Of a stretch of 24,254 bases of DNA, positions 4,362 to 21,039 are shown one piece after another (position 1 is the first letter of the stretch; every line of letters begins with the position of its first letter). This DNA is from Candidatus Firestoneibacteriota bacterium (GTDB lineage Bacteria > Oederibacteriota > D2-FULL-39-29 > JBBTED01). Below the pieces are notes generated by a model. The model was given only the letters and a program-made list of their open reading frames with translations. It ran no database searches and was not told the DNA's origin. The position numbers were made by a program, and so were the translations under genes. The stretch spans positions 1 through 24,254 of the forward strand of contig JBBTED010000165.1 in NCBI GenBank assembly GCA_038042445.1. The letters run 5' to 3'.

Positions 4362-4382
4362 ATGTTAGTGTTTTATCTGACA
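4362..4382 (-). promoter_or_regulatory. Variant TGTCA-box promoter (9-nt spacer) overlapping palindrome ACTAACA-AA-TGTTAGT, upstream of MNT
   Basis: Minus strand TGTCAG-ATAAAACAC-TAACAT; palindrome at 4354-4369. Confidence 0.4.
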
Positions 4383-4494
4383 ACTAAAAAATTATACTAT
4401 AGATTTTTATAGAAATCTATATGAAAGATTATAAAAAATGTTATATTCATCGCAGCATTTTTTTATAACACGAATTTAACAACACTTATCCTAT

Positions 4495-4656
4495 TTATTT
4501 TTGTTGTTTCTTTTCTTCTTTTTTCTTCTGCTTTTCTAAATCAGTTGAAATATCTTCTTCCTTCTGGTCATCTATAAGAATGTTAAATTTGGAATCAACA
4601 AGGAATATTTTCACTTTAGAACAAGTATTATTAATATCACAAGCAGGAAAAGCCAT
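4495..4656 (-). pseudogene. 53-codon ORF, probably a 3' gene remnant
   Basis: MAFPACDINN...DLEKQKKKEEKKQQK*; no RBS; charged tail resembles a protein C-terminus. Confidence 0.25.
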
Positions 4657-4684
4657 TAAAATACCACTGTTATTTTTTTATTAT

Positions 4685-5698
4685 CTATGCTTCTTCTTCA
4701 AGAACATATTCTTTAGGACTAATATTAAATGTCCACGCAAGTGCTTCTTTACAAGTTTTCATATCAGGTGGAACCCTCAAAGTATACCACACACCACTGG
4801 ATGAACATTTAGCCTTTAATAACATAATATTTTCTTCTTCTCTTCTATATCTATTGATTCGTACTAATGAATATTCACCCTTTTTATGCACTACACAATG
4901 TGGCATTTGAGTTAGAAATTTCTCATACCCCATTAATTCAAGCATTATTCTTCTTACTTCAGCATTTGGCTCAGCAATTATTTGTTCTGCTTTTATCTTT
5001 TCTGGATAAAAATATATCTCCTTTGGAATTTTCACTCCCCTGAAATATGTCTCTTCTTTTACCAAATTATCCATTCTATCATAATATTTTGCTGTACCAT
5101 GTATTTGGCCATTATCATTTAAAATTTCAAATCTTTCAAAACCTTTTGCTGTCATTCTTATAACTCCTTTTTCCAAACCATGTTTTCTTCCATCTATAAA
5201 TAAAACTTCCAGTTTACTTTCTCCATCTGGATACCATTCTTTTACCAAACCATGAAATCTGCCATTTATATATGAAAGTTCAGATTTTTGATTCCCATTT
5301 TCATACCACTTTTTATTTATTCCATGAAAAACTCCCTTGTTATATGAAAGTTCGAATTCTATCTGTCCATTCTCATACCATTTTCTTTCTAAACCATGCT
5401 TTATATGACCTAACCATGAAACTTCATATTTTGGAAATCCATTCTTATACCACTGCTTTTCTATACCCTGCTTTATACCATAACTATAAGTTATCTCATA
5501 TTCTTGCTGCTCATTTTCATACCACCCCTTTTCTATTCCATGTAATTGCCAATCAACATAAGAAACTTCATATCGTATTTTTTTGGGCTCACTAAACCAT
5601 CTAAATTTACTCAGTAATCCGTTATCACTTAGAAATTCAGTTTTCAAAACTCTATTTTTGTCCCAAAGTCTTTCCGTAGTTTCCATATCCTTTTCCAA
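4685..5698 (-). CDS. MORN-variant repeat (YwqK-like) protein with C-terminal DUF6745-like domain
   Basis: About 7 repeats of HG.EK.WYENGQ..E..Y. C-terminus I.AEPNAEVRRIMLE.MG.EKF...C.SSG..Y.LRVPP...TCKEALAWTF......Y matches the DUF6745 pattern as I recall it. Confidence 0.8.
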   Translation of the reverse strand: MEKDMETTERLWDKNRVLKTEFLSDNGLLSKFRWFSEPKKIRYEVSYVDWQLHGIEKGWYENEQQEYEITYSYGIKQGIEKQWYKNGFPKYEVSWLGHIKHGLERKWYENGQIEFELSYNKGVFHGINKKWYENGNQKSELSYINGRFHGLVKEWYPDGESKLEVLFIDGRKHGLEKGVIRMTAKGFERFEILNDNGQIHGTAKYYDRMDNLVKEETYFRGVKIPKEIYFYPEKIKAEQIIAEPNAEVRRIMLELMGYEKFLTQMPHCVVHKKGEYSLVRINRYRREEENIMLLKAKCSSSGVWYTLRVPPDMKTCKEALAWTFNISPKEYVLEEEA

Positions 5699-5709
5699 TT
5701 TATGCCGAG

Positions 5710-6012
5710 TTAATCTGCAACTGGCCGCGGAGATTCCGGCAAATATTCACGTTGTTTTATTATTCTGTAATCACCTCTTGGCAATGCTATTTGTTTATGT
5801 TCTTCATGTACTACTATTGCCTCATCATTTTCAACTTTAGCAAAAATATCACCCTTTTCATCCAGATACAAAACACCATTCATCAACATATGTTTATGCC
5901 CTATTGCTTCACCCTCTGCTATGACATTATCTGATTTTTTCACAAGCCCCTCTTTTATTTTATCAATTTTCACAAACAAAATATCCCCTTGTCTCTTTTT
6001 CATTTCTTTCAT
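5710..6012 (-). CDS. Small His-motif beta-protein (RQGD...GEA.GH.H...HEEH...QREY family), typical partner of DUF6745 proteins
   Basis: Conserved motif string, AGGAGG RBS, second copy at 11429-11731. Confidence 0.85.
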   Translation of the reverse strand: MKEMKKRQGDILFVKIDKIKEGLVKKSDNVIAEGEAIGHKHMLMNGVLYLDEKGDIFAKVENDEAIVVHEEHKQIALPRGDYRIIKQREYLPESPRPVAD

Positions 6013-6036
6013 ATCAACCGCCTCCTTTTAATATAG

Positions 6037-6058
6037 AGTATATATCTTCCCTGTGACA
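6037..6058 (-). promoter_or_regulatory. TGTCA-N10-TANNNT promoter, type A copy 1
   Basis: Minus strand TGTCAC-AGGGAAGATA-TATACT, followed by RBS and the ATG at 6012. Confidence 0.7.
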
Positions 6059-6113
6059 TTTTTTAAGTAATCCACGTGACTATATTCTATAAGGTTATTA
6101 GCATTTACTTAAT

Positions 6114-6150
6114 CTAATACAAATATTAGCATAGAGGTATGACAAAATTT
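6114..6150 (-). promoter_or_regulatory. TGTCA-N10-TANNNT promoter, type B copy 1, with palindrome CTAATA-N4-TATTAG
   Basis: Minus strand TGTCAT-ACCTCTATGC-TAATAT (6123-6144); palindrome at 6114-6129. Confidence 0.7.
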
Positions 6151-6175
6151 GAGAGAAAACTCTGAATTCGTTTTC

Positions 6176-6329
6176 TGTCACTCTGAACTGTCTAAAAGAG
6201 ATGCTGAAATGAATTCAGCATGACAAATTCCAGTTATAATATATCTCTTAGACAGATTGGAATTCCTAAAAATAAAGGCTGGATACCGCATCAAAGCTTG
6301 TCCTCGTGAAAACGGGGATGCGGTATGAC
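6176..6329. repeat. Cluster of small palindromic extragenic elements
   Basis: ATGCTGAA-ATGAA-TTCAGCAT-GAC (6201-6224). ATACCGCATC (6283-6292) pairs with GATGCGGTAT (6317-6326) and encloses hairpin TCCTCGT-GAAA-ACGGGGA. Both elements end in ATGAC. Confidence 0.65.
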
Positions 6330-6434
6330 GGCTAATACTGGTTATTTGTATTTTTCTAAAGTGCGGATACAGGTTTCTTTTATGGATTTTCTGAATTCTG
6401 GGGGATTTAATTTAATACTGTTTTTTTATTCATA

Positions 6435-7784
6435 TCATAATCTATATGCTTTATTTATCTCAGGTAAAATAACTTTTTCGCATACTCCTTTAAATAATTC
6501 CGGGTGTTGGGTATGGATTGGAAATAATACTTTTGGATTTATATCCTTAATTATATTCATTATTTGTTTTTTTGTGCAATGTCCAGATGCGTGCAATTGG
6601 TGAAAAATCAATCCAAAATGTTTAATCCATTTATCCATTATATCCGCTTCTATGTCTTCCTCGCTGAACGGCTCACTCATTGAGTGTATAAAATGGCTTC
6701 CCTTATCTGGTCTTATATCAATAAGTTCTGTGAAATTTGTAAAATCAAGATTTAATATAAGTTCGCTTTGATGCTTATGTATATAATCCGCTCCAACTGA
6801 ATTTTGCAAATAAGGTCTTTCCCATTTACTATAATCATTCTCTTCATATTCACCGCTTCTTTTTCTTCTTTTATATATTAGAATATTTTTATCTTTGAAA
6901 ACATTCGGCATTCTTAATTTCAAATCATCTTTTAGTTTGTTTATAAGATTTGCAAGTTTCATTGAAATAACAAATTTTCGTTTATTTTCTTTTGCGACAT
7001 TATAAAAAGTGTAAAACCTGTCTATATCCCTTCCATAAAAAGTTGCTATCACTAATTTTGATGTCTTTGATACTATTTCAAAACTTTTTTCATACACATC
7101 ATCTTCGCTCGTATTATATTCTTTTTTACTTGTAGATACTTTTGTTCCCTCGCATATCATTATATTTGGTTTTGCTTTTTTTGCTTTTCTTAAAAAATCC
7201 TTTGTCAGTTCTGATGCAGAACCGTGTATTCTTAAATCACCAGTATAAACAATATTTCCGTCTTTTGTGTAAATTATAAATCCATAAGCACCGGGCACAG
7301 AATGGTCAACATGTATTGGCTCTATAGTTATTTTTCCTATTCTTATTTTCCTGCCAGTCCTGAATGTTTTATAGTTATGCTCACCATAATCCATATTTCC
7401 GCTTTCTTCCATTGCTTCCATAATCAATTTTGTTGTTTCTCCGCAATATATCGGAATATTTTCATCTATTGCCCAAATATCTCCAATATGGTCTATATGA
7501 ACATGGGATATAAAAACTCCATCATAAATTGGTTTTTGATATTTTATGCTGGTATGCAGCAATAACTCTTTTGAATAGAGTCCTTTTAGAGATGGCAATA
7601 AGCCAAACTCCAGATAATCTGCTACGCCATTAACATTCCTTGGCTGAAGATAATCAGTAAAATACTCTCCTGCTTTGGAAAAACTCATCCCAAAATCAAA
7701 AAATATCTTGGTTTTATTATGTTCAAGCAGAATTTTATTCCCGCCAATCTCCCCCACTCCCCCATAAAATGTTAGGTTAAGCAT
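6435..7784 (-). CDS. RNase J-like MBL-fold/beta-CASP metallo-hydrolase
   Basis: GG.GEIGGN, FDFG, SHVHIDHIG (HxHxDH), VDHSVPGA, YTGDLR, CEGT, HASGH, PIH. Confidence 0.9.
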   Translation of the reverse strand: MLNLTFYGGVGEIGGNKILLEHNKTKIFFDFGMSFSKAGEYFTDYLQPRNVNGVADYLEFGLLPSLKGLYSKELLLHTSIKYQKPIYDGVFISHVHIDHIGDIWAIDENIPIYCGETTKLIMEAMEESGNMDYGEHNYKTFRTGRKIRIGKITIEPIHVDHSVPGAYGFIIYTKDGNIVYTGDLRIHGSASELTKDFLRKAKKAKPNIMICEGTKVSTSKKEYNTSEDDVYEKSFEIVSKTSKLVIATFYGRDIDRFYTFYNVAKENKRKFVISMKLANLINKLKDDLKLRMPNVFKDKNILIYKRRKRSGEYEENDYSKWERPYLQNSVGADYIHKHQSELILNLDFTNFTELIDIRPDKGSHFIHSMSEPFSEEDIEADIMDKWIKHFGLIFHQLHASGHCTKKQIMNIIKDINPKVLFPIHTQHPELFKGVCEKVILPEINKAYRL

Positions 7785-7788
7785 TTTA
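7756..7788. repeat. 33-bp direct repeat covering the MBL start codon (partner at 8585-8617)
   Basis: ACTCCCCCATAAAATGTTAGGTTAAGCATTTTA is identical at both sites. Confidence 0.95.
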
Positions 7789-7827
7789 ATATTTTTATAT
7801 AGTTTTTTTAGAAATATATTATTGTAA

Positions 7828-7848
7828 ATTATACATTACTCTCTGACA
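7828..7848 (-). promoter_or_regulatory. Type A-like TGTCA promoter variant (9-nt spacer) upstream of the MBL gene
   Basis: Minus strand AAAAA-TGTCAG-AGAGTAATG-TATAAT-TTACAA; flanks resemble the copy at 14880. Confidence 0.55.
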
Positions 7849-7880
7849 TTTTTTTATGTTATGTAATAACAGGTAAAAAT

Positions 7881-8282
7881 TTATAGAAATTCAACAGATG
7901 GATATTTCTTTATCTTTTCGTAAAGTTTTTTATCTGAAGTTATGAATTTGTAATTCATATCTAATGCCAAAGCAAGATAATGAGCATCATATTCTGTAAT
8001 TTTATTTTTATAAGAAAGATTTATTGCTCTTTTCATAATATGAGGTACAGGAGCTATTATATTTATACCCATATCAAATATACTTTGAACTACTTCTGTA
8101 ACTGCATACTCTGTAAAAGACTGTTTGCTTAAAAGAGCATTAGCGACTTCATGTAAAAGTAAATCAGGAACATTAATGCTGATTTCTCCTTTGATATATC
8201 TATCTCTTATATCACGGGCTACTTGAGATTTTTCTTCTTCTACAAACCATTTCAAAACTACTGAAGCATCTAAGATGAACAT
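7881..8282 (-). CDS. vapC: VapC-type PIN-domain toxin
   Basis: From the ATG at 8282: MFILDASVVLKWF..EE, P.LL..EV.NAL, IT.YDA.YLALA, FITSDKKL. The ORF-track start at 8324 lies inside the antitoxin gene. Confidence 0.9.
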   Translation of the reverse strand: MFILDASVVLKWFVEEEKSQVARDIRDRYIKGEISINVPDLLLHEVANALLSKQSFTEYAVTEVVQSIFDMGINIIAPVPHIMKRAINLSYKNKITEYDAHYLALALDMNYKFITSDKKLYEKIKKYPSVEFL

Positions 8283-8485
8283 CTGGTTTCTCTTAATTTT
8301 CTTACTTGTGATACTGAGTCCCAACTATTATCTTTCTTGCCAAAGGTATTTCTAATATCATCTTGCTTCTTTACAGCTTTCAACATTCTATCTTTATCTT
8401 TTACTGTTGCCTGCAATAAAAGAAAATATCTCCTTGAAATCATATCTTTTAAATTTATTGAAGAACTTTTTTCTAAAGTATGCAT
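8270..8485 (-). CDS. Putative VapB-type antitoxin
   Basis: 71 aa, GAGGTG RBS, overlaps the vapC start; C-terminal DSVSQVRKLRE is typical of PIN antitoxins. TGGTATAAT extended -10 at ~8507-8515. Confidence 0.7.
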   Translation of the reverse strand: MHTLEKSSSINLKDMISRRYFLLLQATVKDKDRMLKAVKKQDDIRNTFGKKDNSWDSVSQVRKLRETRCSS

Positions 8486-8550
8486 TTACTATCACCTCTT
8501 TATCTATTATACCAAAGACAAATTTATTATCAATAACATTATTCTTTTTG

Positions 8551-8613
8551 CTATCGTCTAATCTTATCCCCACCAATTTCTCTTACTCCCCCATAAAATG
8601 TTAGGTTAAGCAT
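8551..8613 (-). pseudogene. Truncated 5' copy of the MBL hydrolase gene
   Basis: MLNLTFYGGVREIGGDKIRR* versus MLNLTFYGGVGEIGGNKILL in the intact gene. Confidence 0.9.
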
Positions 8614-8618
8614 TTTAT

Positions 8619-9986
8619 TTATGGACTAAAATCCATTTTTAGTCTTTGAAGTTCTTTTTTCAATAAATCACTATCCTTGATATCTCTCACCTCTCCTTTT
8701 ATATCATCAAGTATATAGTTATTTTTTTCTCCATTGTTTCCATTATTTCCAGTATTATTTTTTTCATTATCTTTTTCATAACAAGGAATATCATTTTGCT
8801 GTTTATATGATTTTCTTGTAGATATTTTCAATATTTGATCTATTTTAATTTTAGGATTTTTTATTATAACTCCGCATTCAATATTTTTTCTATTATTTAG
8901 TCCTAATCCACTACTTGTTATATTTGAAGAACCTATAAAGATTTTATCTGTATTATCCTTGTATTTTATATAAATAATCTTTGCATGATTAAAAGTCCTA
9001 TAAGTTCTATATGTTATATCATTTTCTAAATTTTTTTTAAAAATATCTATTATCTTTTCTTTATTGTTTTTTTGAGTCCTTATTTTTCTATTTAATTCCT
9101 GTTCGGTTGAAACAAGCCATTCTTTTTTTGTTATATCAACAATTTTATTTAAGTGTTTAAATATTTTTTTGTCTTTTTCATTTTCTAATATTAATTTAAT
9201 GCTTTCGTCTATTTCTGAATTTTCTTCAGAAGAAATACTTCTATCTGAAGTATTCTTAAATAGATAAATATCCTTGCTATTCCTAACGATTTCTTTGGGG
9301 AAATCTTTTTCGGAATTGTAATAAAAATATTTTTTCCCATTAGCTTCCTTAATGATTTTTTTAACACATTTTTCACCCCAAAAAGGTGAAATTAGATGTA
9401 TTTCTTTTATGTTTTTTTTATCTGCAAAAATTTGTTCGTAAATACAATTATTATTTTGAAATATGAATTTGGATCCATTTGAAAAATCAATCTTAATCTT
9501 TATGTTTTTCTGTGGGTAAATTTCACTCACAAATTTATTCAAATTTGAGGTCTTGTTTGTATTTGTTTCAGGAAATTCTTTTACAAATGCATATTCATAA
9601 TTATTATTCAACCCTGCTTTAGTGAGATTAAATGAACCAATTATTATTCTATAAAAAATTTTATTTTCCTTTCTATTTGTATTTTTGTCGTATTTTATTA
9701 TATATAATTTGGGGTGAAAAGAAGTTCTTTTACGAGAATTATAGACTATTACTTTTTTATCATACAACCAATTGGAGATTTGTTTTATTTGTGAAAAATG
9801 TACAATTATTTTAAAAAACTCTAATTTTTTTATTTCAGCTCTTGATTTTATGTTTAAATTGTTAAGTATATATTCTTTAAAATAATTTCCATCAAAACTA
9901 TAAGTAAAACCCAAAAATCCTTTAAGTTTATATCTGCAATCCAAACTAAAAATTTCCGAAACAGACTTTTTATATATTTCTGGCAT
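8619..9986 (-). CDS. Phospholipase D-superfamily protein with two HKD-type motifs (likely nuclease)
   Basis: GFTYSFD; FHPKLYII...IGSFNLT; ISPFW; NHAKIIYI...IGSSNIT..G...NIECGV. Confidence 0.85.
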   Translation of the reverse strand: MPEIYKKSVSEIFSLDCRYKLKGFLGFTYSFDGNYFKEYILNNLNIKSRAEIKKLEFFKIIVHFSQIKQISNWLYDKKVIVYNSRKRTSFHPKLYIIKYDKNTNRKENKIFYRIIIGSFNLTKAGLNNNYEYAFVKEFPETNTNKTSNLNKFVSEIYPQKNIKIKIDFSNGSKFIFQNNNCIYEQIFADKKNIKEIHLISPFWGEKCVKKIIKEANGKKYFYYNSEKDFPKEIVRNSKDIYLFKNTSDRSISSEENSEIDESIKLILENEKDKKIFKHLNKIVDITKKEWLVSTEQELNRKIRTQKNNKEKIIDIFKKNLENDITYRTYRTFNHAKIIYIKYKDNTDKIFIGSSNITSSGLGLNNRKNIECGVIIKNPKIKIDQILKISTRKSYKQQNDIPCYEKDNEKNNTGNNGNNGEKNNYILDDIKGEVRDIKDSDLLKKELQRLKMDFSP

Positions 9987-9991
9987 TTATT

Positions 9992-10867
9992 TTATTTTTT
10001 TGTGTTAATTTCTTTCTTGATTTTATATAAAACATCAAATCTAAATTTACTTACATCATTTTTTTCTGAGTCGCCATATTTTTTCTTAAAATCCGACATA
10101 AGCTTTATCTTTTTATCCTCAATTTTATATGGTACCATTCCTTTTTTCTGTATAATTCTTTCTCTTATTTCTTTAAGTATATTCTCTTCCTTTGTTTTTC
10201 CACCTTCCTTTTTACACTTATGAATATTTTCAATAAATTTTATTATATCCCGATAATCTTCTTTTAATTTTTTAATATATTCTTTATTTGTTTTTTCTTT
10301 TTTAAACAGTTTTGTTAGTTCACCATTATCAAAAATTTCTGAGATTGAGACACTTCCATTCTTATTTTTTAATTTTTTAATATTATTTACTATCAGTAGT
10401 ATAGGTTTTACAATTTCATAAAAATACTTCATTTTTTTTAGTGTATCTCGTATTTCTATGCTTTTTATTTTTTTAATTACATCAGGAAACTTGTCATCTT
10501 TAAATGGCTCTGCTTTTAGTTTTAGTTGTCCATATATATCTTTTATATGTTTTGACGGAGGACTTAATTTATCCCTCCTGTATTTTAAGCTAATTATAAT
10601 TCTCTCTATTTCTTTTTTAATTTTGCTATTTAGATTAAAATTACATCTATTTTCTTTATTATATTTTTTTATATTGTAGAATCTTTTTTTTATATAATTA
10701 TATATATCTTTCCATTCATTATATTCAAGTATAAAGTTTAAAAAGCTTTCGCCTTTATCTGTTAGATTATTATTTTCTTTATTTTTAAGACCACAAAATT
10801 CCAATGAAGACTTATATCTATCATACGCATAAGTCTGTGAAGAAGTTAAAAAATCTTTCAAATCCAT
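9992..10867 (-). CDS. Hypothetical protein preceding PLD, probably 5'-truncated by a deletion
   Basis: Long open frame, 5 nt from the PLD start. Its ATG is an out-of-frame triplet inside the MORN copy-2 NGFERF codons, with no RBS. Confidence 0.6.
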   Translation of the reverse strand: MDLKDFLTSSQTYAYDRYKSSLEFCGLKNKENNNLTDKGESFLNFILEYNEWKDIYNYIKKRFYNIKKYNKENRCNFNLNSKIKKEIERIIISLKYRRDKLSPPSKHIKDIYGQLKLKAEPFKDDKFPDVIKKIKSIEIRDTLKKMKYFYEIVKPILLIVNNIKKLKNKNGSVSISEIFDNGELTKLFKKEKTNKEYIKKLKEDYRDIIKFIENIHKCKKEGGKTKEENILKEIRERIIQKKGMVPYKIEDKKIKLMSDFKKKYGDSEKNDVSKFRFDVLYKIKKEINTKK

Positions 10868-11417
10868 TTACTTTTATTTTGAATTTTTTCTCCAAACCAT
10901 GTAGCCTTCCGTTTACAAAAAAAGCTTCTTTTACAATTTCTCCATTTGGGAACCATTCTTTTGCCAAACCATGCAATTGGCCATTTATATATACACACTC
11001 ATCTTTCTGATTCCCATTTTTATACCACTTTTTATTTATTCCATGAAAAATTCCCTTCTTATATGAAAGTTCAAATTCCATCTGACCATTCGCACACCAT
11101 TTCCTTTCTACTCCATGCTTTATATGACCTAACCATGAAACTTCATATTTTGGCAATCCATTCTCATACCACTGTTTTTCTATGCCCTGCTTTACCCCAT
11201 AACTATAAGTTATCTCATATTCTTGCTGCCCATTTTCATACCATCCTTTTTCTATTCCATGTAATTGCCAATTAACATAAGAAACTTCATATCGTATTTT
11301 TTTGGGCTCACTAAACCACCTAAATTTACTCAACAATCCGTTATCACTTAGAACTTCAGTTTTTAAAACTCTATTTTTGTCCCAAAGTCTTTGAGTAGTT
11401 TCCATATCCTTTTCCAA
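10821..11417 (-). pseudogene. MORN-variant repeat protein copy 2, truncated (no DUF6745-like domain)
   Basis: Aligns with 4685-5698 up to GFERF, then runs into unrelated sequence and stops after 9 codons. Confidence 0.8.
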
Positions 11418-11428
11418 TTTATGCCGAG

Positions 11429-11731
11429 TTAATCTGCAACTGGCCGCGGAGATTCTGGCAAATATTCACGTTGTTTTATTATTCTGTAATCACCTATTGG
11501 CAATGTTATTTGTTTATGTTCTTCATGCACTACTGTTGCTTCATTATTTTCAACTTTAGCAAAAATATTACCATTTTCATCCAGATACAAAACACCATCT
11601 ATCAATATATGTTTATGCCCTGTCGCTTCACCTTCAGCTATAATATTATCTGATTTTTTGATAATATCTCCTTTAATCTTATCAATCTTCACAAACAAAA
11701 TATCCCCTTGTCTCTTTTTCATTTCTTTCAT
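11429..11731 (-). CDS. Small His-motif beta-protein, copy 2
   Basis: 100 aa, same motifs as 5710-6012 (GEATGHKH, HEEH, QREY), AGGAGG RBS. Confidence 0.85.
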   Translation of the reverse strand: MKEMKKRQGDILFVKIDKIKGDIIKKSDNIIAEGEATGHKHILIDGVLYLDENGNIFAKVENNEATVVHEEHKQITLPIGDYRIIKQREYLPESPRPVAD

Positions 11732-11755
11732 ATCAACCGCCTCCTTTTAATATAG

Positions 11756-11777
11756 AGTATATATCTTCCCTCTGACA
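11756..11777 (-). promoter_or_regulatory. TGTCA-N10-TANNNT promoter, type A copy 2
   Basis: Minus strand TGTCAG-AGGGAAGATA-TATACT. Confidence 0.7.
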
Positions 11778-11828
11778 TTTTTTTAAGTAACCCACATGAC
11801 TGTATTCTATAATTAGTATTTACTTCAT

Positions 11829-11865
11829 CTAATACAAATATTAGCATATAGGTATGACAAAATTT
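11829..11865 (-). promoter_or_regulatory. TGTCA-N10-TANNNT promoter, type B copy 2
   Basis: Minus strand TGTCAT-ACCTATATGC-TAATAT (11838-11859); palindrome CTAATA-CAAA-TATTAG. Confidence 0.7.
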
Positions 11866-11934
11866 AGGGGATTAAAATGATAAATTAGTTATAACTTTTA
11901 AGTGTATAAATACAGGTTTCTGATAACAACAAAA

Positions 11935-13260
11935 CTATAACTCAAAAAGTTCATCATCTGATAAAATATGAACATTATCAAATAATTTTTTATATTGGTC
12001 TGCGTGAAAAGTATGAATTGGAATTAATATTTTAGGTCTTAATGCCTTATTAAAAGATTTAAGATCCTTTACAACCGCATGTCCACTGGTATGAATATGT
12101 TTAAGTATAAGATTATTCGTATCGACAAAATTCCAAAACTTGCTTGCCTTTTCCTTATCTCGGATATATCCTTCCCATTGAGAATAAATAACCGTTGCAC
12201 CGTTAATTTTTGGAATCTGCTTAACTAATGGAATCATAGAATCACGCATAACAACAAGACACTTTTCGCTACCGATTTCCCATGTTTTTATCTTATGCTT
12301 CCCTATATCAAAAGTAAGATATTTTAAATTTGATTTAACAATTTTTTCAATGTACATATCGCCATTGCCATAATAATTACCTATCAACACCTTAATATTT
12401 CTCCAATCTAATTGAGGAATATTCTTGTTTTCATTTTTTACCACATGTAGGACGATAGCGATATAAGGATCAATAATAAACGTAGCTTTCATATGTCGTA
12501 CCGCCTTATAAAATGTTACTATGCGGTCAATATTTTGTCCTGAGCAATATGCAAATACAATATTATTATTTTTTTTTAAAACCTCTTGCACTCCCTTCAA
12601 AACAGCCTGCTCATCTGAAAAACTACTTTCTTGCCGTTCTATCATAGTTCCCTCCATTAGCAGACAACTTACATTTTTAGGAGGATGTTTTATAAAAGAA
12701 TCAAATAAATATTTCTTCCATCCGCTTGCACGAAAATCTCCTGAGTAAAACAGACTTTTGCGTGTTGATTTCTCTTCAACCAGAAAAGACATGGCATCAA
12801 AACCTGAATGGTCAACCAGATAAGGAGTTATATGTAAACCACCAATATCAAAACCTATCCTATGCTTTACTATACACGGTTTTAAAATGTTACTATGGTT
12901 TTGCTTGTGCGTAAAAACATTAAGAACATGAATAAGTTTACAAGCTCCTTCGCTGATATATACGGGAATATCAGGATTTACATACTTTAATAATCCATAA
13001 TGATCTTTGTGAGAGTGAGATAATAGAATTGCATCTATTTTCTTTTCTTCATCATTATAAACTCCTGTGATATCTGGCAATACTTTCATTGCTTTTAATT
13101 CAGCAATGGATTTATTCTCTAATTTCTTTTCATCAAAAGAAAGTTTGTTTTCATCAACAAGCGGCATCCCAAAATCAATTAATATCCTGGTTTTACCAGC
13201 AATTACCTCAACACAACTTCCACCTATTTCTTTTGTGCCACGATGAATAATGAGTTTCAT
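11935..13260 (-). CDS. RNase J-like MBL-fold/beta-CASP metallo-hydrolase (second, divergent)
   Basis: HRGTKEIGGSC, IDFG, SHSHKDHYG, VDHSGFDA, YSGDFR, MEGT, YSQWEGY, HTSGHA, PIH. Confidence 0.9.
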   Translation of the reverse strand: MKLIIHRGTKEIGGSCVEVIAGKTRILIDFGMPLVDENKLSFDEKKLENKSIAELKAMKVLPDITGVYNDEEKKIDAILLSHSHKDHYGLLKYVNPDIPVYISEGACKLIHVLNVFTHKQNHSNILKPCIVKHRIGFDIGGLHITPYLVDHSGFDAMSFLVEEKSTRKSLFYSGDFRASGWKKYLFDSFIKHPPKNVSCLLMEGTMIERQESSFSDEQAVLKGVQEVLKKNNNIVFAYCSGQNIDRIVTFYKAVRHMKATFIIDPYIAIVLHVVKNENKNIPQLDWRNIKVLIGNYYGNGDMYIEKIVKSNLKYLTFDIGKHKIKTWEIGSEKCLVVMRDSMIPLVKQIPKINGATVIYSQWEGYIRDKEKASKFWNFVDTNNLILKHIHTSGHAVVKDLKSFNKALRPKILIPIHTFHADQYKKLFDNVHILSDDELFEL

Positions 13261-14273: not shown

Positions 14274-14855
14274 TTACTTTTTATTATTTCCAGTTAGTCC
14301 TTTTATATAGGTTTTATATTTCTTCAAAAAACCATATAACACAGAATGTCCCCTCGTAGTATATTTTCTTCTATCTATTGCTATTAAATCAAAAATAAGC
14401 CACCTTAATTCTTCTGGATGTTCTACTAAAATTTCAGCAATACATCTTGTAGCATCATGCCATCTATTCCACCACTTATATAAAAGCGATAATTCAGTTT
14501 TCAAAATAAATAAATCTGGAGCAAGCTTAATTGTTTTAATATAATATTTTTCTGATGTTTCATAATCATTTATAAACTTATAACACGCTGCTATTGTACG
14601 ATAAATTGCTATCTTATAACAAGGATATTTTATAAGTAACTTTTTTAATCTTAAGATTGCATTTTTACCCAACTGCACCAATTCCTTTGTTGGTTCTTTT
14701 TTATGTTTTATATTGGAAAAAGCCTTGTGTAATAAATACTTATAATCTTTTAAAATAATATTCCATTTTTTATCAGTTCTTATATCTGGAATAAAAGATA
14801 TATAAGGTATAAAGTTTTTATTTATCCTTGCATTCATTTCTTTATACTTTTCCAC
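14274..14855 (-). CDS. Helical, TPR-like hypothetical protein
   Basis: GTG start with AGGAGG RBS; IYRTIAACY....DYETSEKYYIKTIKLAPD fits the TPR consensus. Confidence 0.65.
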   Translation of the reverse strand: MEKYKEMNARINKNFIPYISFIPDIRTDKKWNIILKDYKYLLHKAFSNIKHKKEPTKELVQLGKNAILRLKKLLIKYPCYKIAIYRTIAACYKFINDYETSEKYYIKTIKLAPDLFILKTELSLLYKWWNRWHDATRCIAEILVEHPEELRWLIFDLIAIDRRKYTTRGHSVLYGFLKKYKTYIKGLTGNNKK

Positions 14856-14879
14856 TATTATCAGCCTCCTTCAATGTAA

Positions 14880-14901
14880 ATTATATATCTCCCCTCTGAC
14901 A
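14880..14901 (-). promoter_or_regulatory. TGTCA-N10-TANNNT promoter, type A copy 3
   Basis: Minus strand TGTCAG-AGGGGAGATA-TATAAT (perfect -10, no -35 hexamer at canonical spacing). Confidence 0.75.
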
Positions 14902-14927: not shown

Positions 14928-16520
14928 TTAAGCAAATTTTTCTCCTGCCTGAGAATATTCAACCTCCAAATTATTTTTTACTATATTCTGTTTGAATTTA
15001 TATTCATCAATTAACAGCTTTGTATGGGAACACTTGGAATTAAAACCATGGAACATAAATGAAGAAAGAAGCTCTTCCATTATTGTTCTTAATCCTCTTG
15101 CTCCAACACCATTATTAATTGCCTCTTCTGCTATTAGATAAAGCACTTCTGAAGTAATTTGCAAATCCACCCCATTCAATCTGAACATCTCCTGATACTG
15201 TTTTAAAATAGCGTTTTTCGGAACAGTTAATATATCAACCATTTGATCCAATGTAAGTTCTTCAAGAGTAGCAATAACTGGAATACGGCCTATCAACTCT
15301 GGAATCATTCCATATTCTATGAGATCTTCAGTATTCACTTTATTAATATCTCTATGGTAATTTTGTTTGTTAGTATCTGACGGACAAAAACCAATCTTGT
15401 TTTTTTTCCGTCTATTTATAATATCACGTAAACCATCAAAAGCACCTCCAACGATAAATAATATATTTTTAGTATTCATATCAGGAAAATAATGATGTGA
15501 GTAACTTATAATATTGCTTTCTATGAGTTTCAACAATTCTTCCTGAACAGACCTCCCAGAAACATCTCTATCTGAGTTATGAGCTTTTGTTATTGACTGT
15601 GTTGCTATTTTATCTATTTCATCAATGTATATAATCCCACGTTGTGCATTTTCAAGATTATATCCTGCTTTTCCATATAATTTGGATAACATATCCTCTA
15701 CGCAACCACCCACATATCCAGTTTCTGTATAAACAGTTGCATCAGTTATAACAAATGGCACATCAAGTGTTTTTGCTAAAGTTTTACATAATAATGTTTT
15801 ACCACATCCTGTTGGACCAATTAAAAGTATATTACTTTTTTCTATTTCAATACCATTATTATTATGAAATATCCTTTTAAAATGATTGTATACCGCAACA
15901 GATAATATTTTTTTTGCATAATCCTGACCTATCACATATTTGTTAAGTTCAGAATATATCAACTCAGGAGATTTAATATTTTTTTTATTGATAATATATT
16001 TGTCTTTATTTTTCTTACATTTAGGAATTGCTTTTCTGCCATATGCAATTTCACGAATAGATAAGGATGTGAGAAAATAATCGGCTTGAATTTCTGGCAT
16101 AATGGTTAACCCTGTTAATCGATCAGAACTTATTATACCTTTTTTTCTCAATCTTCCCTCTTTGCTCAAATACCGCATATTCTTTAGTGCCACAACTGAA
16201 TCATTGTTAGATATGATTTTTAAAAGTTCCACTCCGCTTAATCTTGACTTGCCTTGCTGCAAATGTGCATTAAGTAATACAAGAACAATCAGCGATTCTT
16301 CTTCATTTAAGTGGTTGCGTTTTATTAAGCGTCCCAAACTTGTATTTTTACCTCTTTCAATAATAGTGCTTATCTTGTTAATGATATTATGAGTTGCATC
16401 TACTTTCGTTTTTTCATCATCATTCTTTTTCATTATTCTTCTATATACATGATTTGTTGCACAAAACAATTCCTTTACAAGCTCCATTTGTTGACGCAAT
16501 ACATCATCACTTTTGCTCAT
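14928..16520 (-). CDS. clpX: ClpX-family AAA+ unfoldase paralogue with ~175-aa non-zinc-finger N-terminal domain
   Basis: VIGQ..AKKILSVAVYNH.KR, KSNILLIGPTGCGKT, DAT..TE.GYVG, IDEIDK, RDVSG, KIGF loop, PELIGRIP, GARGLR. No C4 zinc finger and no RKH loop. Confidence 0.9.
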   Translation of the reverse strand: MSKSDDVLRQQMELVKELFCATNHVYRRIMKKNDDEKTKVDATHNIINKISTIIERGKNTSLGRLIKRNHLNEEESLIVLVLLNAHLQQGKSRLSGVELLKIISNNDSVVALKNMRYLSKEGRLRKKGIISSDRLTGLTIMPEIQADYFLTSLSIREIAYGRKAIPKCKKNKDKYIINKKNIKSPELIYSELNKYVIGQDYAKKILSVAVYNHFKRIFHNNNGIEIEKSNILLIGPTGCGKTLLCKTLAKTLDVPFVITDATVYTETGYVGGCVEDMLSKLYGKAGYNLENAQRGIIYIDEIDKIATQSITKAHNSDRDVSGRSVQEELLKLIESNIISYSHHYFPDMNTKNILFIVGGAFDGLRDIINRRKKNKIGFCPSDTNKQNYHRDINKVNTEDLIEYGMIPELIGRIPVIATLEELTLDQMVDILTVPKNAILKQYQEMFRLNGVDLQITSEVLYLIAEEAINNGVGARGLRTIMEELLSSFMFHGFNSKCSHTKLLIDEYKFKQNIVKNNLEVEYSQAGEKFA

Positions 16521-16600
16521 AACAACTCACCCCCTATTTCGTTAAACGAATTTAACGAAATTCCTAATTGTAAAAGCATCTGTATGTCTTTCATACTCAT

Positions 16601-16637
16601 CTAATATAAATATTAGCATAAAGGTATGACAAAATTT
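16601..16637 (-). promoter_or_regulatory. TGTCA-N10-TANNNT promoter, type B copy 3, upstream of the clpX paralogue
   Basis: Minus strand TGTCAT-ACCTTTATGC-TAATAT (16610-16631); palindrome CTAATA-TAAA-TATTAG. Confidence 0.7.
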
Positions 16638-16872
16638 TTGGGATTAAGACACACTAATTTATAATTATGGATTAAAAGTATGAATAGTTTCTATTTTCTT
16701 TGGGTTTAACGCTAATTCAAGTCGTCCCAACTTCTGCACTTTTTCATTAAAAAGGAATCTTTTTAGTAACTTCTAAAAAACAAACCATTGATATTTTCAA
16801 AGGCATAGCAAATTCCATAATGAATGCCGAAACTTTTTTCCCATAGGCATTATATCCAAAATACAAAAAATA

Positions 16873-17211
16873 TTACTTATCTTTAGGGGCAATCCAAAAG
16901 GAATCCCCACAAATTTGACCATCAACAAGCATAACATCATCAAGAGAAGGTTCGCTAAGTCCTCCAAGATAATTGGGCCAGGTCTGACTTATTTTGCAAG
17001 AGCTAATTAAATAATCAAAATCCTTACGAGATAACATCCCTATAAATTTATACCATCTATTATATGCTAAATAGTAACCTTCTTTTCCTTTAACCTGAAC
17101 CCTTTTAATCATATATATTTGTCTATATCGATTGCCATCTTTTTGATAAGGCTCAAGTATTAAACCTTTTGATACTTCAATTAATTCTTCAACTAAGTTT
17201 TTTATTTCCAT
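16873..17211 (-). CDS. Hypothetical protein
   Basis: 112-aa ORF, protein-like composition, co-oriented with neighbours; no recognisable motif. Confidence 0.55.
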   Translation of the reverse strand: MEIKNLVEELIEVSKGLILEPYQKDGNRYRQIYMIKRVQVKGKEGYYLAYNRWYKFIGMLSRKDFDYLISSCKISQTWPNYLGGLSEPSLDDVMLVDGQICGDSFWIAPKDK

Positions 17212-17216
17212 CTATG

Positions 17217-17347
17217 TTATGTATTCAAAGTGTCCACTTTTATATTTCCATCGGGATATTTTTATATTATTTTCCTTGTTACCTCTTTACTACACAGCTA
17301 TTTAATGAAAACACCAAAATCAATATTGCAATATAAATTCTACTCAT
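17217..17347 (-). pseudogene. Remnant of a lipoprotein gene (possibly MORN-type)
   Basis: GAGGAG RBS then MSRIYIAILILVFSLNSC (signal peptide + lipobox). After a frameshift it reads SKEVTRKII*KYPDGNIK. Confidence 0.5.
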
Positions 17348-17936
17348 CTTCTCCTCTTTTGTAATAACAATTTATTACTTTATTTATTATTGTATCGTCA
17401 ATTTTGTCAAAAACTGCTTTCATTTTTGTTTTTTTGCTCCAATATTTCAGAAATTCATTTGAATCAATTATGAAAAGTTTAATGTTAGGTTTACTTTTAA
17501 TTAATCTTATTAGTTTTTTTGCTTTTTCTATTCGTCTTATTCCTTCACACTTTAATGGATATACAAAAATAAAATTCACATTTTGTTGTCTTATAATCTC
17601 TTTTAGGATATACCAGATTACTCCAAATCCAGTTCCGCCACAACCAGTAATGATTACAAGTTTATTGCTATTAATCGCTTTCTTAATTTTTGAACCATAC
17701 ATAATCGCAAGCATCAATCCATAGTCATAAACACCCAAAGCACTTTCTCCCTTGCCAATAAGAATTTTCTTTTTTATATGATGTAATTTTCCGATTGAAG
17801 AACTATTACTATCTATAGCAACGCAATTAGATTTTAATTGAGGATGCAATTGAGAAATTCTATCGGCAAAATACGAACCACAACCACCAAGACCTATAAT
17901 TTGTATTTTCATATGGATTATTAATTGCACTATCAT
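17340..17936 (-). CDS. Stand-alone FtsZ/tubulin-like GTP-binding domain
   Basis: KIQIIGLGGCG (T1), AIDSN, KILIG, GCGGTGFG (T4 signature), P.K.EG.RR..A...I (T5), IIDSNEFL, AVFDKIDDTI (H7). Ends before the T7 loop. Start may be the Met at 17912. Confidence 0.8.
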   Translation of the reverse strand: MIVQLIIHMKIQIIGLGGCGSYFADRISQLHPQLKSNCVAIDSNSSSIGKLHHIKKKILIGKGESALGVYDYGLMLAIMYGSKIKKAINSNKLVIITGCGGTGFGVIWYILKEIIRQQNVNFIFVYPLKCEGIRRIEKAKKLIRLIKSKPNIKLFIIDSNEFLKYWSKKTKMKAVFDKIDDTIINKVINCYYKRGEDE

Positions 17937-18182
17937 TTACTATATGATAAAGAATTGTTTCATACAATTTCTTTACTGCCTTTTCACAAATACATAAAAT
18001 TTCCTCTTTGGATTCATAATTACCAGACCAATTATAATTCATAAAACCAGAAGATTCAATTTAAATTTATTGTACATAATTCAAACACTCAACTTTGTTT
18101 GTAAGTTTTCATATAACAGGACTTTGTTAAATTTTAGTCCTATTTTTTCTTTAACTCCTTTATTTTCAATACTTTTGCTCAT
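17860..18182 (-). pseudogene. Disrupted ORF upstream of the FtsZ-like gene
   Basis: Strong AAGGAGG RBS and ATG at 18182 give only 33 codons. Another frame (17860-18042) is open downstream and overlaps the FtsZ-like start. Confidence 0.35.
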
Positions 18183-18226
18183 AAAACCCCTCCTTGTAGG
18201 TTTTCCATTTAAAAAAACTGCAACTC

Positions 18227-18553
18227 TTACCTCTTATTTACTTTATTCATTAGTTCCTGTGTACCAACAAATACATAGATCAACAGTGTCAAAGGAAATA
18301 ATAAAATAGCCATACTAACAATTGCATACTGAATTATAATTCTTCTTATTTTGTCATGCCGGGTTTTCATTAGTATATATTTATTTTCCTCTTTAACTTG
18401 AGTAAGTGTCTTAGGAGGTTCATCAATAGACACCGTTATATCATCAAGATGCTTTTCATCTATATATAATTTATCACCTCGCTCTTTAAATATATAATCC
18501 ACTATCTCTTTTGGGTCTTTATATTTACTATTTATATTATCCATTTCAATCAC
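18227..18553 (-). CDS. Small protein with C-terminal transmembrane segment
   Basis: Hydrophobic IIIQYAIVSMAILLFPLTLLIYVFVG; lies directly behind type B copy 4. Confidence 0.65.
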   Translation of the reverse strand: MIEMDNINSKYKDPKEIVDYIFKERGDKLYIDEKHLDDITVSIDEPPKTLTQVKEENKYILMKTRHDKIRRIIIQYAIVSMAILLFPLTLLIYVFVGTQELMNKVNKR

Positions 18554-18573
18554 TCTACCTGTTACCTATGTAA

Positions 18574-18601
18574 ATATTAGCATAGAGGTATGACAAAATT
18601 T
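18574..18601 (-). promoter_or_regulatory. TGTCA-N10-TANNNT promoter, type B copy 4
   Basis: Minus strand TGTCAT-ACCTCTATGC-TAATAT (18574-18595), identical to copy 1. Confidence 0.7.
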
Positions 18602-18613
18602 TGAGATACCCCA

Positions 18614-18718
18614 CAGCATACATCTGAGAATTTCATGAAAAACTGCGGTGAACTTGATATCAAACAAATATTTACAACATGGTCGAATCCAAAAGGAAAT
18701 TCAGATACGGAAAGAGTC
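18614..18718 (+). mobile_element. Fragment of a DDE (rve; IS3/IS481-like) transposase
   Basis: Translates QHTSENFMKNCGELDIKQIFTTWSNPKGNSDTERV, matching the Q.TS..F...C..L.I.Q......P..N...ER core around the catalytic Glu. Confidence 0.75.
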
Positions 18719-19114
18719 AGCAGCAATCATCTCAACAATTATCCCTTTCTTTTCCATATCCTTTATTTTATTTTCCACAGCCCAGGTATCCCTGAATTTA
18801 ATGTTGTAGAAGGCAAAAAAGCAAACTTTTGCAACATCTTTCTTCTTAGTCAGTTTCTCCACATCTTTTTTCACGTAAATACCGCCCTCCCAAAAATACT
18901 TGAATTCACAATAATACTCAACATTATCATCAATTTTCAAATACAAATCATAATTTTCTTTTTCGCTCTGCCATTTGACCCTCTCCTTAAATTCTTCTAT
19001 TAGATAATGACAAAACCAAATAATTATATCTCTTTCTACTCTCAAGTTATCATATTGCTCTCTTATGACCTTTTTAAATATTTCTTTCAATTTATTATCA
19101 AACACTTGAATCAC
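18701..19114 (-). CDS. Small PD-(D/E)XK nuclease-fold protein, 3' end running into the IS fragment
   Basis: ERD...YDLYL.......CEFKY........KDVEKL motif order; the stop codon lies inside the transposase fragment. Confidence 0.6.
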   Translation of the reverse strand: MIQVFDNKLKEIFKKVIREQYDNLRVERDIIIWFCHYLIEEFKERVKWQSEKENYDLYLKIDDNVEYYCEFKYFWEGGIYVKKDVEKLTKKKDVAKVCFFAFYNIKFRDTWAVENKIKDMEKKGIIVEMIAADSFRI

Positions 19115-19192
19115 TCTCCTTTAAATTTCTTTAACTTCTTCACCATAATATAATTTGTTCTATACTATTACAAAAGCAAAATTATACTGTAT

Positions 19193-19417
19193 TTAAAATT
19201 GTTTTGCTACTATAACAACTTTTACAAAATTCTTTCTTTCACTAACCTGATAACAAAAAACAATATTTACATTTTTATTCATTAATTTTTGTATATAAGT
19301 AGTTGCATCACAATATTCACCAAGAGTATTAGCATCATTAACTTTTACTAATACTTTAAGATTAGAAATACCAATTCCAACAATTTTTTTTCCAAGTTTA
19401 TCAAATTGTTCTTGCAT
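19193..19417 (-). CDS. Stand-alone FtsZ C-terminal-domain-like protein
   Basis: VGIG...KVLVKV...TLGEYCDATTYIQ......NIVFCYQV......VKVVIVAKQF parallels FtsZ MGIG...GVLVNI...TL.EV.EA...I.......NIIFG..I......IRVTVIATGF. Confidence 0.6.
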   Translation of the reverse strand: MQEQFDKLGKKIVGIGISNLKVLVKVNDANTLGEYCDATTYIQKLMNKNVNIVFCYQVSERKNFVKVVIVAKQF

Positions 19418-19439
19418 AATACAAATCCTTACTTTTCAT

Positions 19440-19470
19440 CTAATATGAATATTAGAAAAGAGGTGTACTC
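19440..19470 (-). promoter_or_regulatory. Degenerate type B element (TGTCA box lost)
   Basis: Keeps palindrome CTAATA-TGAA-TATTAG and ACCTCT....-TAATAT, but has GAGTAC in place of TGTCAT. Confidence 0.6.
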
Positions 19471-19517
19471 CCTTGCTTTTCTATATCACTAAACCAGTAC
19501 ATATCAATAAATTTCTT

Positions 19518-20387
19518 TTAACGTTTTTTATTTGAGTAGTATTCATATATATATTTTGAAATCATTGTAGTTTTATCTTGTTTATTATTACAACTACATT
19601 CAACAATATTGTTTTTTGAATCATATTTAACTACATCTCTTATCTTATTTTTAATATCGCCATTTAAATTATATCTATTGATTATTAGACCTATTCTTCT
19701 ATTTCTATAATACATATAAATTTTCTTCATATACATCCTACCGTGTAAGTTATACCTTTTTTCTTTAGTTTTATTACTATTTTCATCATATTCAAAAATC
19801 CGTCTTTCCTTAATATCGCCATTTGATAGATACAAGATATTTTCTATTTCATTTCCGTTATTATCATACTTTTGCATAGATTCTTTTCCAGTTTCGCCTA
19901 TTGTGATTTTATTTCCAACTGTATCATATTTATAAATTGTTCTATGCTTGACATTATGCTTTGAATCATAATACAAACATTCGATTTTTCTGCCCTCTAC
20001 ATCATAAATATCTCGTCTCATAATATATTTATATTTTTTACTAATATACCACCATATTTCCTCATTTATTCTTCCCTTATTGTCACACTTGTAAATCATT
20101 TTATTTCTTATATTTGATTCAGGACATATACTAATATCCCAAATTTGTTTACCTTCACTATTAAATTTTTCAACTAATATGTGATGAATACTGCCATTTG
20201 AGTTGTAGTGTGTCTGTTTAACTGGATATCCATTGTAATCATATTCTAAAAATAACTGTTTATAACTATTTTTAAGTTTCCCATTTTTATATGAATATAC
20301 CCATATAGTGAAAGATTTAATTTTTGATGACTTAATCCTCTCTCTTTCTATCTCATACCACGGCTTTTTTTGTGATTTCTTTAGCAT
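19518..20387 (-). CDS. YD/RHS-like beta-hairpin repeat protein
   Basis: Repeated YD..GN.IE...Y..NG.I units; no signal peptide and no RHS core terminal motif. Confidence 0.7.
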   Translation of the reverse strand: MLKKSQKKPWYEIERERIKSSKIKSFTIWVYSYKNGKLKNSYKQLFLEYDYNGYPVKQTHYNSNGSIHHILVEKFNSEGKQIWDISICPESNIRNKMIYKCDNKGRINEEIWWYISKKYKYIMRRDIYDVEGRKIECLYYDSKHNVKHRTIYKYDTVGNKITIGETGKESMQKYDNNGNEIENILYLSNGDIKERRIFEYDENSNKTKEKRYNLHGRMYMKKIYMYYRNRRIGLIINRYNLNGDIKNKIRDVVKYDSKNNIVECSCNNKQDKTTMISKYIYEYYSNKKR

Positions 20388-20526
20388 ATAATTTACTCTT
20401 CGTTTTTCAAAATATTTTTAAGAGCCATACATACTTCTTTTTTAATCCAAATTGGTATATCTACCAAAAGTGTCTTCCCTCTACTTGAAGTAGCATCTAT
20501 TATATCTCTTTTTGAAAATAATTTAA

Positions 20527-20751
20527 CTATAATATTCTTTTTGTTATTTTTTTAATATAATTTTCACATTCTATATTTTGATATATAAACAACTTATCAT
20601 TATCATTAATATTACTATATCTTGATAATTTATCAGCATCATTATCTACTATTAAATAATTGTAGTCAGAATTATCTTTAATTATATCATTTAAAAATTC
20701 ACAGCTAAATTCTCCAATTCCCACTATTGTTGTATTTATCATTGTTTTCAA
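20527..20751 (-). pseudogene. Short ORF resembling the first strands of an FtsZ/Rossmann-like domain
   Basis: TTIVGIGEFS.......YLIVDNDADKL...KLFI resembles FtsZ S1-H1-S2 (IGVG...NTD...L); stops after ~70 aa. Confidence 0.4.
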
Positions 20752-20754
20752 GTA

Positions 20755-20880
20755 TTAAAAAACGAAACCATGCATTCTCCTTTTCTTTTTGTGACAAGTT
20801 TTTAAAATATCTACTTTATCTTCTAAATCATTATCCTCTTCATCTTCATTGAAATTATTTTTATTATCCAAATCTAACAT
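20755..20880 (-). CDS. 41-aa acidic ORF
   Basis: GGAGG RBS, MLDLDNKNNFNEDEEDNDLEDKVDILK...; may be a frameshifted remnant. Confidence 0.35.
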   Translation of the reverse strand: MLDLDNKNNFNEDEEDNDLEDKVDILKTCHKKKRRMHGFVF

Positions 20881-20929
20881 ATTCTTCCTCCCAAATTTTT
20901 GTTTGTATGTTTTTACTTTTCATCTATAT

Positions 20930-20991
20930 GCAGTTGCTGATTTATCAGCGATTTTTTAAAAAAACCGCAATGCCGATAAATCGGCAACTAC
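20930..20991. repeat. Inverted REP doublet (REPIN-like)
   Basis: GCAGTTGCTGATTTATCAGC (20930-20949) ... GCCGATAAATCGGCAACTAC (20972-20991); a further decayed copy at 21096-21115. Confidence 0.75.
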
Positions 20992-21010
20992 TTAGAATAT
21001 ATATTGTAAT

Positions 21011-21039
21011 AGATTAACACACAGGTATGACAAAATTTT
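21011..21039 (-). promoter_or_regulatory. TGTCA-N10-TANNNT promoter, type B copy 6
   Basis: Minus strand TGTCAT-ACCTGTGTGT-TAATCT (21011-21032). Confidence 0.65.

Follow-up and report, generated by a model that had tools for sequence, protein, structure and literature searches.

The contig JBBTED010000165.1 (assembly GCA_038042445.1, Candidatus Firestoneibacteriota bacterium), analyzed over its full 24,254 nt and hereafter called the window, carries an island of genes for nuclease-like proteins, FtsZ-like proteins, a ClpX paralogue, and DUF6745 proteins. The intergenic DNA ahead of these genes contains a repeated box of the form TGTCA-N11-TANNNT, which is the same as TGTC-N12-TANNNT, that is, a 12-nt spacer between TGTC and the −10 element. 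We describe these boxes together with a PafB–PafC activator pair encoded on contig C89 of the same assembly (2.81 Mb, 32% GC, 90% complete, 181 contigs). Below, G000 is the present assembly, C89 (also L071), C147, C55, C69, and C92 are its other contigs, and other G codes are genomes of relatives. Metagenomes with matching DNA come from groundwater, where labeled, and no RNA dataset is among those listed. The best named match of the RecA, at 70%, is from Candidatus Firestonebacteria, which gives a tentative placement.

Boxes in the window

The boxes and the duplicated segments around them are as follows (window coordinates; ORF, open reading frame; REP, repetitive extragenic palindrome).

21011..21032, minus: box B, most diverged copy, TGTC-N12-TAATCT
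19449..19470, minus: decayed B copy, TGTCA replaced
18574..18595, minus: box B, 21–29 nt upstream of a 108-residue membrane ORF (18227–18553)
16610..16631, minus: box B ahead of the ClpX paralogue
14880..14901, minus: box A with ribosome-binding site, ahead of a TPR ORF (14274–14855)
11838..11859, minus: box B inside a copy of the pafC 3′ tail and intergenic DNA (11824–11921, 82.5% to C89:3292–3394)
11756..11777, minus: box A, 24 nt ahead of a gene for a 100-residue QGD protein
7828..7848, minus: A-derived copy with a 1-nt spacer deletion, at the head of a beta-CASP nuclease gene
6366..6404, minus: second copy of the pafC 3′ tail; REP-like insertions lie between it and box 6123
6123..6144, minus: box B, duplicate of 11838
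6037..6058, minus: box A, duplicate of 11756, TGTCAC variant
5129..6150, minus: arm of a 1,025-nt, 89% duplication (B, A, QGD gene, 5′ part of MORN gene); other arm 10851–11865
4362..4382, minus: TGTCA-N10-TAACAT, in common with A only TGTCAG; doubtful member

The window has eight sites with the pattern (6037, 6123, 11756, 11838, 14880, 16610, 18574, and 21011), every one of them on the minus strand, and these are the eight sites of the initial annotation. Each is intergenic and has the same orientation as the downstream island genes. Shuffled windows gave a mean of 1.53 sites and a maximum of 5 (eight or more in 0/100 shuffles), while the density in the rest of the genome predicts 0.41 sites per strand (P(≥8) = 1e–8). 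Because 6037/6123 and 11756/11838 lie within one 1,025-nt, 89%-identical duplication, the eight sites reduce to six placements (P(≥6) = 5e–6) and two ancestral sequences. Over the whole assembly the pattern shows no enrichment (there are 137 sites, and 100–149 with other spacers).

Family A boxes read AAAAAATGTCAGAGGG...TATAAT/TATACT, and family B boxes read AAATTTTGTCATACC...TAATAT. The division into two subfamilies with one geometry, made in the initial annotation, holds, but A and B are duplicated modules rather than independent sites. Its three extra sites (4362, 7828, and 19449) also exist, although 7828 is an A copy that has lost one nucleotide and 4362, judged by its letters, is a doubtful relative. 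The ORF behind 19449 (19193–19417) is a duplicate, 25 residues shorter, of the first ORF after pafC on C89. In family A, 24 nt separate the −10 element from the start codon and include a strong ribosome-binding site, a promoter-like arrangement.

The proposed likeness to PafBC promoters is borne out by the geometry, which equals that of the PafBC motif, tGTCgg(N10)tA(N3)T (PMC8635444). All eight window sites and the A copy on C89 satisfy the tGTC-12 nt-tA-N3-T rule; the B copy on C89 has TAATAA. TGTCAG and TGTCAC are variants of the motif in Mycobacterium tuberculosis (PMC8151990), and family A boxes are exactly these two variants.

Two side observations concern the same DNA. A TGTC-N12-TAGCAT match lies antisense within hipA (window 22655–22676) and is kept in the hipA remnant of C89 (L071:5949–5970), probably by chance. 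A REP-like palindrome has inverted copies near both ends of the box region (3197–3220 and 20968–20991), and the genome has 85 copies of its 20-nt core.

A PafB–PafC pair on contig C89

The initial annotation postulated a WYL activator with helix-turn-helix (HTH), WYL, and WCX domains, encoded elsewhere in the genome. A WYL search of the assembly gave three matches, a helicase-WYL gene on C69 and a tandem pair on C89, where fic, pafB, and pafC follow one another (C89:1344–3328; pafB 1344–2345, pafC 2345–3328). Both proteins of the pair have WYL and WCX domains, and the second has HTH_PafC. Their best PDB matches are PafB and PafC of Mycobacterium smegmatis in 7P5X (E 5.8e–24 and 6e–24, respectively). 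The activator is thus a true PafB–PafC pair; "elsewhere" fares less well, since the pair probably heads the same island, as described below.

The residues that make contacts in mycobacteria are largely retained. There, GTC is read by PafB R46 and R50, and sigma region 4 is contacted by PafC D62 (PMC8635444). The RMFERDK helix of C89 PafB is identical to the mycobacterial one, with R44 and R48 as the equivalents of R46 and R50; R8, S40, K52, and Y76 are also kept, R56 is replaced by Lys, and the D62 position of PafC is Glu, an acid that may keep the contact with sigma. Six residues of the PafB WYL domain bind single-stranded DNA (ssDNA): R181, Y196, R204, R208, R211, and R214 (PMC11804915). Four of these (R181, Y196, R208, and R214) are identical in C89 PafB and two (R204 and R211) are Lys. 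A heterodimer model scored 0.73 against 0.00 for the best control (contacts agreeing to at least 89%, predicted local distance difference test at least 77); the mark used is reached by 51 of 78 solved pairs and 2 of 108 mismatched pairs. Complexes like 7P5X and 6SJ9 are already solved, and the score, which expresses likeness to solved complexes only, may pass from resemblance to these two.

No box lies upstream of pafB itself in G000. The neighbors of pafBC are fic and small ORFs, with no Pup-proteasome locus. The assembly, at 90% completeness, yielded no Pup ligase; it has two LexA-like genes. Two patterns found no PafB relatives in the virus collection, a metagenome scan with PafC returned five distant WYL loci, and the 19 plasmid records returned hold mostly single WYL proteins. 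The start of C89 (L071:1–72) is common to four other contig ends and is likely an unassembled insertion element adjoining fic-pafBC.

A matrix scan of the 181 contigs found one further B copy and one further A copy, both on C89 (scores 42.6 and 33.2; next matches 18.5 and 20.1), so that the two families are confined to the window and C89. At the contig end, a dnaB start is fused to the A copy together with the latter's ribosome-binding site and first codons. The native dnaB begins after rplI on C147, another dnaB 3′ end precedes argB on C55, and the common core is unassembled. C89 and the window have in common the pafC-tail copies, a piece of hipA (present on C89 as a remnant), and the duplicated first cassette. 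The C55 dnaB end has Tyr, as in all three comparable relatives of the class, while the window end has His; because the C55 end keeps the relatives' residue and C89 and the window share pieces, C89-dnaB-window is the likelier order. Synteny does not settle the dnaB pairing because gene order after dnaB differs among five class relatives. C89 and the window are both covered in runs of three studies, among which the source may be included. We conclude that C89 probably joins the window via an unassembled second dnaB and that pafBC probably heads the same island as the boxes, both judged from the assembled sequence.

Boxes beside pafBC in other genomes

None of 40 relatives has the exact B pattern, and the 12 genomes of the same class yielded no PafB. 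In a phylum sample of 99 genomes, 11 tandem pafBC loci have sequence after pafC. Six of these, G000 included, have TGTC and a −10 element at 12 nt located 27–45 nt past the pafC stop, exact in G020, G076, G053, and G061 and with one mismatch in G030 and G000. As G053 and G061 are near-identical, the five other genomes represent four independent loci. Further boxes lie downstream (four in G076, four in G061, and four around the G020 pair), and they form lineage-specific families that are alike only in TGTC, spacing, and −10. G020 has four boxes in 4.1 kb versus two in 69.7 kb of flank, in a window drawn after seeing the sites.

We counted gapped words in the intergenic DNA after pafC at nine loci, a set without G000 and G053. 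Of 3,584 words, TGTC-12-TANNNT took the top rank, with 10 counts from 5/9 loci, one of which (G018) is probably a chance occurrence; 500 shuffles gave a mean of 0.30 and a maximum of 3, and the opposite strand gave 1. The lineage family patterns of four genomes gave three matches off the island, all within genes. A GTDB scan with a PafB alignment yielded at least 80 loci, mostly from actinobacteria among the matches listed, with three dropped where PafB was not located. Among the matches listed with sequence after pafC, 0/68 had a box within 150 nt; nine loci classed as non-actinobacterial among the matches listed (six Gemmatimonadota by title) gave 11 sites at 12 nt versus 1–3 at other spacers.

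Relatives' pafBC loci neighbor ArdC, RadC, recombinase, McrBC, and methylase genes. In G030 a CBASS operon has one box ahead of it, and an FtsZ-like gene follows pafC; in G061 one box stands ahead of a small ORF and DISARM. An AAA protein beside pafBC in G020 proved not to be a ClpX homologue. G004 and G008, genomes of the same class in which no pafB was found, have the extended ClpX with no box ahead, and G004 also has QGD, MORN-DUF6745, and beta-CASP genes, none with a box ahead. Since related cargo lacks boxes in these two genomes, neither of which yielded a pafB, the boxes track pafBC and not the cargo. No box lies upstream of the DUF6745 loci of four other genomes of the phylum.

In G004 (L216:1336–6001) the winged-helix ClpX paralogue stands beside QGD and two DUF6745-like genes, and in G008 (L217) beside a ClpP-like gene; the two loci may represent a protease module. 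G051 (L122:1772–5593) has fic-pafB-pafC, the order seen on C89, followed by a sigma-70-family gene, without a box. High-GC G065 has two boxes (L210:4700 and 7295) 12–15 kb after pafBC, at least one of them directly before a Thr-Pro-rich lipoprotein-like gene.

Our preferred reading is that the boxes are hybrid −26/−10 promoters read by the genome's own PafB–PafC, in an island-private, ssDNA-triggered sigma-adaptation circuit separate from the core repair genes; we assign it a probability of roughly three in four. Several points weigh against it. C89 PafB is without K5, E42, and A43, and its shorter wing has Tyr for Trp70; C89 PafC is without Y254/Y255. The C89 B copy, which begins 30 nt past the pafC stop, reads TAATAA and so has no T at −7. 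With TGn ahead of the −10, all six B copies could function in the absence of an activator. The sole sigma-70-type gene found by tblastn encodes 297 residues (on C92), and the 90%-complete assembly seems to be missing a full-length primary sigma factor. Of the 11 phylum loci, five are without a box after pafC; none of the contigs listed bridges C89 to the window; and no complete known defense system was matched among the island's own genes. In a quick tree of 71 rows, C89 PafB stands apart from the clade of G020, G076, G053, and G030, the other box-array genomes, and therefore the common layout is either very old or arose twice.

The boxes might instead be constitutive sigma-70 promoters, of the extended −10 type in B and with a weak −35 element in A, that local duplication has multiplied and in which TGTCA would persist simply through the young age of the copies. 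This would fit the near-identity of the B copies over about 30 nt and their TGn; some copies also fit a −35 element with an 18-nt spacer, and the 7828 site can be read as ATGTCA-17-TACAAT, a canonical 17-nt promoter. However, the 17/18-nt reading is not common to all copies, whereas TGTC-N12 is, and the unrelated box families elsewhere keep the geometry, for the most part lack TGn, and occur only in the vicinity of pafBC. Recent duplication is insufficient because the geometry agrees across genomes, and we consider this explanation improbable.

Recombination sites or a repressor operator would account for the position of the boxes at gene boundaries, for the gene-end fragments that adjoin them, and for the imperfect palindrome of B (CATA-N4-TATG core). 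The B hairpin is, however, not beyond chance (z −1.2 to +1.4), A and the relatives' boxes are non-palindromic, no recombinase is annotated in the window or C89, and no well-supported joint between B copies is among the joints listed. The B core spacing also does not fit the dif layout, which argues against a recombination site. We regard either role as very unlikely.

The initial annotation expected the box upstream of recA, ssb, uvr, and rtcB, as in a mycobacteria-like, genome-wide PafBC DNA-damage regulon of which the window would be the visible part. The presence of a true PafBC would suit such a regulon, as would the partial PafBC dependence of M. tuberculosis dnaB (PMC8151990). The expected enrichment was not seen. 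No intergenic box precedes any of 21 putative repair ORFs (uvrA, uvrB, ruvABC, radA, ssb, rtcB, and others, picked by gene signatures; those for uvrC, dinB, ligA, xseA, sbcD, recJ, rtcA, and recQ gave no match), and the two box matches near repair ORFs fall inside upstream genes. The recA promoter of the assembly (TTGACA-17-TACAAT) has no box, nor does any of the eight recA promoters read in the phylum (G024 and G018 left out). Outside the window and C89 the count is flat, with 18 gene-upstream sites at the 12-nt spacer versus 6–20 at others. Because no intergenic box lies ahead of recA or the 21 putative repair ORFs, we conclude that this is not a genome-wide damage regulon; that the boxes are part of one after all is hardly credible. 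Separately, a GTATAC-N4-GTATAC palindrome at or just before the recA promoter in G030, G053, and G076 (L203, L205, and L206) is a candidate LexA-type box.

The last alternative, that TGTCA 10–11 nt before the −10 is a PhoB half-site read by a single PhoB, draws on the resemblance of the boxes to pho box geometry (two 11-nt direct repeats) and on the phoB-phoR-pst genes of this genome, but it is most implausible given that there is no 11-nt direct repeat upstream at the 12 sites examined and no TGTCA-type box ahead of the pst operon, and that the boxes track pafBC across genomes.

Island cargo, proposed circuit, and known systems

The genes of the island are as follows.

24140..24254, minus: 3′ end of the second dnaB
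22752..24053, minus: AAA+ ATPase after the second dnaB; weak IetA-like match, below the family cut-off
21240..22735, plus: hipB-hipA(N)-hipA(C) toxin-antitoxin module with a canonical sigma-70 promoter
20527–20751: FtsZ-like remnant, frameshifted
17340..17936, minus: FtsZ/tubulin protein, GTPase domain only
14928..16520, minus: ClpX paralogue, 47% to the native ClpX
11935..13260, minus: beta-CASP/RNase J-like metallo-hydrolase; paralogue at 6435–7784
8619..9986, minus: PLD-family nuclease-like protein
7881..8485, minus: PIN-domain gene with a small upstream ORF
4685..6012, minus: 100-residue QGD protein (phage homologues) and MORN-DUF6745 protein; truncated duplicate at 10821–11731
3237..4329, minus: minimal nucleotidyltransferase and PD-(D/E)XK nuclease, at the far end of the island

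As annotated initially, hipB has no box, its promoter being canonical (TTGACA-17-TATAAT). The N-terminal domain of the ClpX paralogue is predicted to be a winged-helix variant (PF22977-like). Runs X4 and X5 contain a diverged variant of the ClpX-paralogue region (window 15759–17197), suggesting related island-bearing strains. An orphan 58-nt copy of the beta-CASP gene start (7731–7788) at 8560–8617 is a trace of gene replacement. No relative of the QGD protein was found in the virus collection, and the term DUF6745 appears in no paper found. The mix of cargo suggests growth arrest and defense.

Under the PafB–PafC reading, and by analogy with mycobacteria, PafBC would likely co-activate the island genes upon ssDNA build-up. 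Steady expression of pafBC behind fic would be expected, because no box precedes pafBC. Single-stranded DNA, arising through damage, at stalled forks, or from invading DNA, would bind the WYL domains and activate PafBC; the PafB HTH would read GTC at −26 while the PafC HTH takes sigma region 4, redirecting the housekeeping polymerase to the boxes, with a start 6–8 nt after TANNNT. The regulon would grow by copying a short promoter module ahead of new genes together with bits of old neighbors (B with the pafC tail, A with the ribosome-binding site and first codons), the host dnaB duplicate being one captured gene, and a module would decay upon loss of its box, as may have happened at 19449. The output would likely be a stress and antiphage package, comprising nucleases, ATPases, and FtsZ-like proteins, under control separate from core repair.

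We suggest more tentatively, at somewhat less than even odds, that pafBC with one downstream box is a portable platform that captures genes, from whole antiphage systems to a host dnaB duplicate, by copying its own 30–100-nt promoter module, and so builds an ssDNA-triggered defense array that leaves core regulons untouched. The layout of pafBC and boxes is seen in two distant PafB clades of one candidate phylum. To our knowledge, sigma adaptation has been demonstrated only in mycobacteria, as a global repair switch. If our reading is right, it is portable across phyla and usable as a private circuit, and it offers an activator route to ssDNA-triggered immunity beside the known repressor route (CapW/BrxR). 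The 22-nt box would also serve as a handle, marking the genes behind it as candidate stress or defense genes, for example, the QGD/DUF6745 pair and the winged-helix ClpX. We found no paper on PafBC-type promoters outside actinobacteria or on a PafBC-driven defense island in a literature search that mostly did not cover subscription papers; the WYL-distribution supplement of PMC6789036 might list PafBC pairs from other phyla.

The operator layout of CapW and BrxR differs from the asymmetric box described here. These regulators are likewise island-linked WYL proteins with ssDNA as the likely signal, and relatives of the present genome have CBASS or DISARM downstream, but CapW and BrxR are homodimeric repressors released by ssDNA (PMC11662680, PMC9122601), whereas the pair here is of a heterodimeric, activating type, and each gene has a single asymmetric box. 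DdaA of Moraxellaceae is likewise a WYL activator that ties DNA damage to antiphage systems; it is, however, a global regulator, binds about 50 bp upstream of the start site, and may not use sigma adaptation (PMC12392091). SiwR of M. smegmatis is, similarly, a local WYL activator of adjacent genes acting via the −26 region, but as a homodimer on a 19-bp palindrome with a GGA triplet at one operon (PMC10693628). Among the closest known systems are also the mycobacterial and actinobacterial PafBC and RecA-NDp −26/−10 promoters (PMC8635444, PMC11804915, PMC8151990, PMC8223512; PDB 7P5X, 9FND, 6SJ9), which have the same tandem winged HTH-WYL-WCX pair, the RMFERDK helix, the ssDNA residues, and GTC-N12-TANNNT. 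Here, in contrast, the host is non-actinobacterial, no Pup ligase was found, and recA and the 21 putative repair ORFs have no intergenic box; where mycobacterial PafBC serves about 150 scattered genes, the present pair is associated with one island of duplicated promoter modules.

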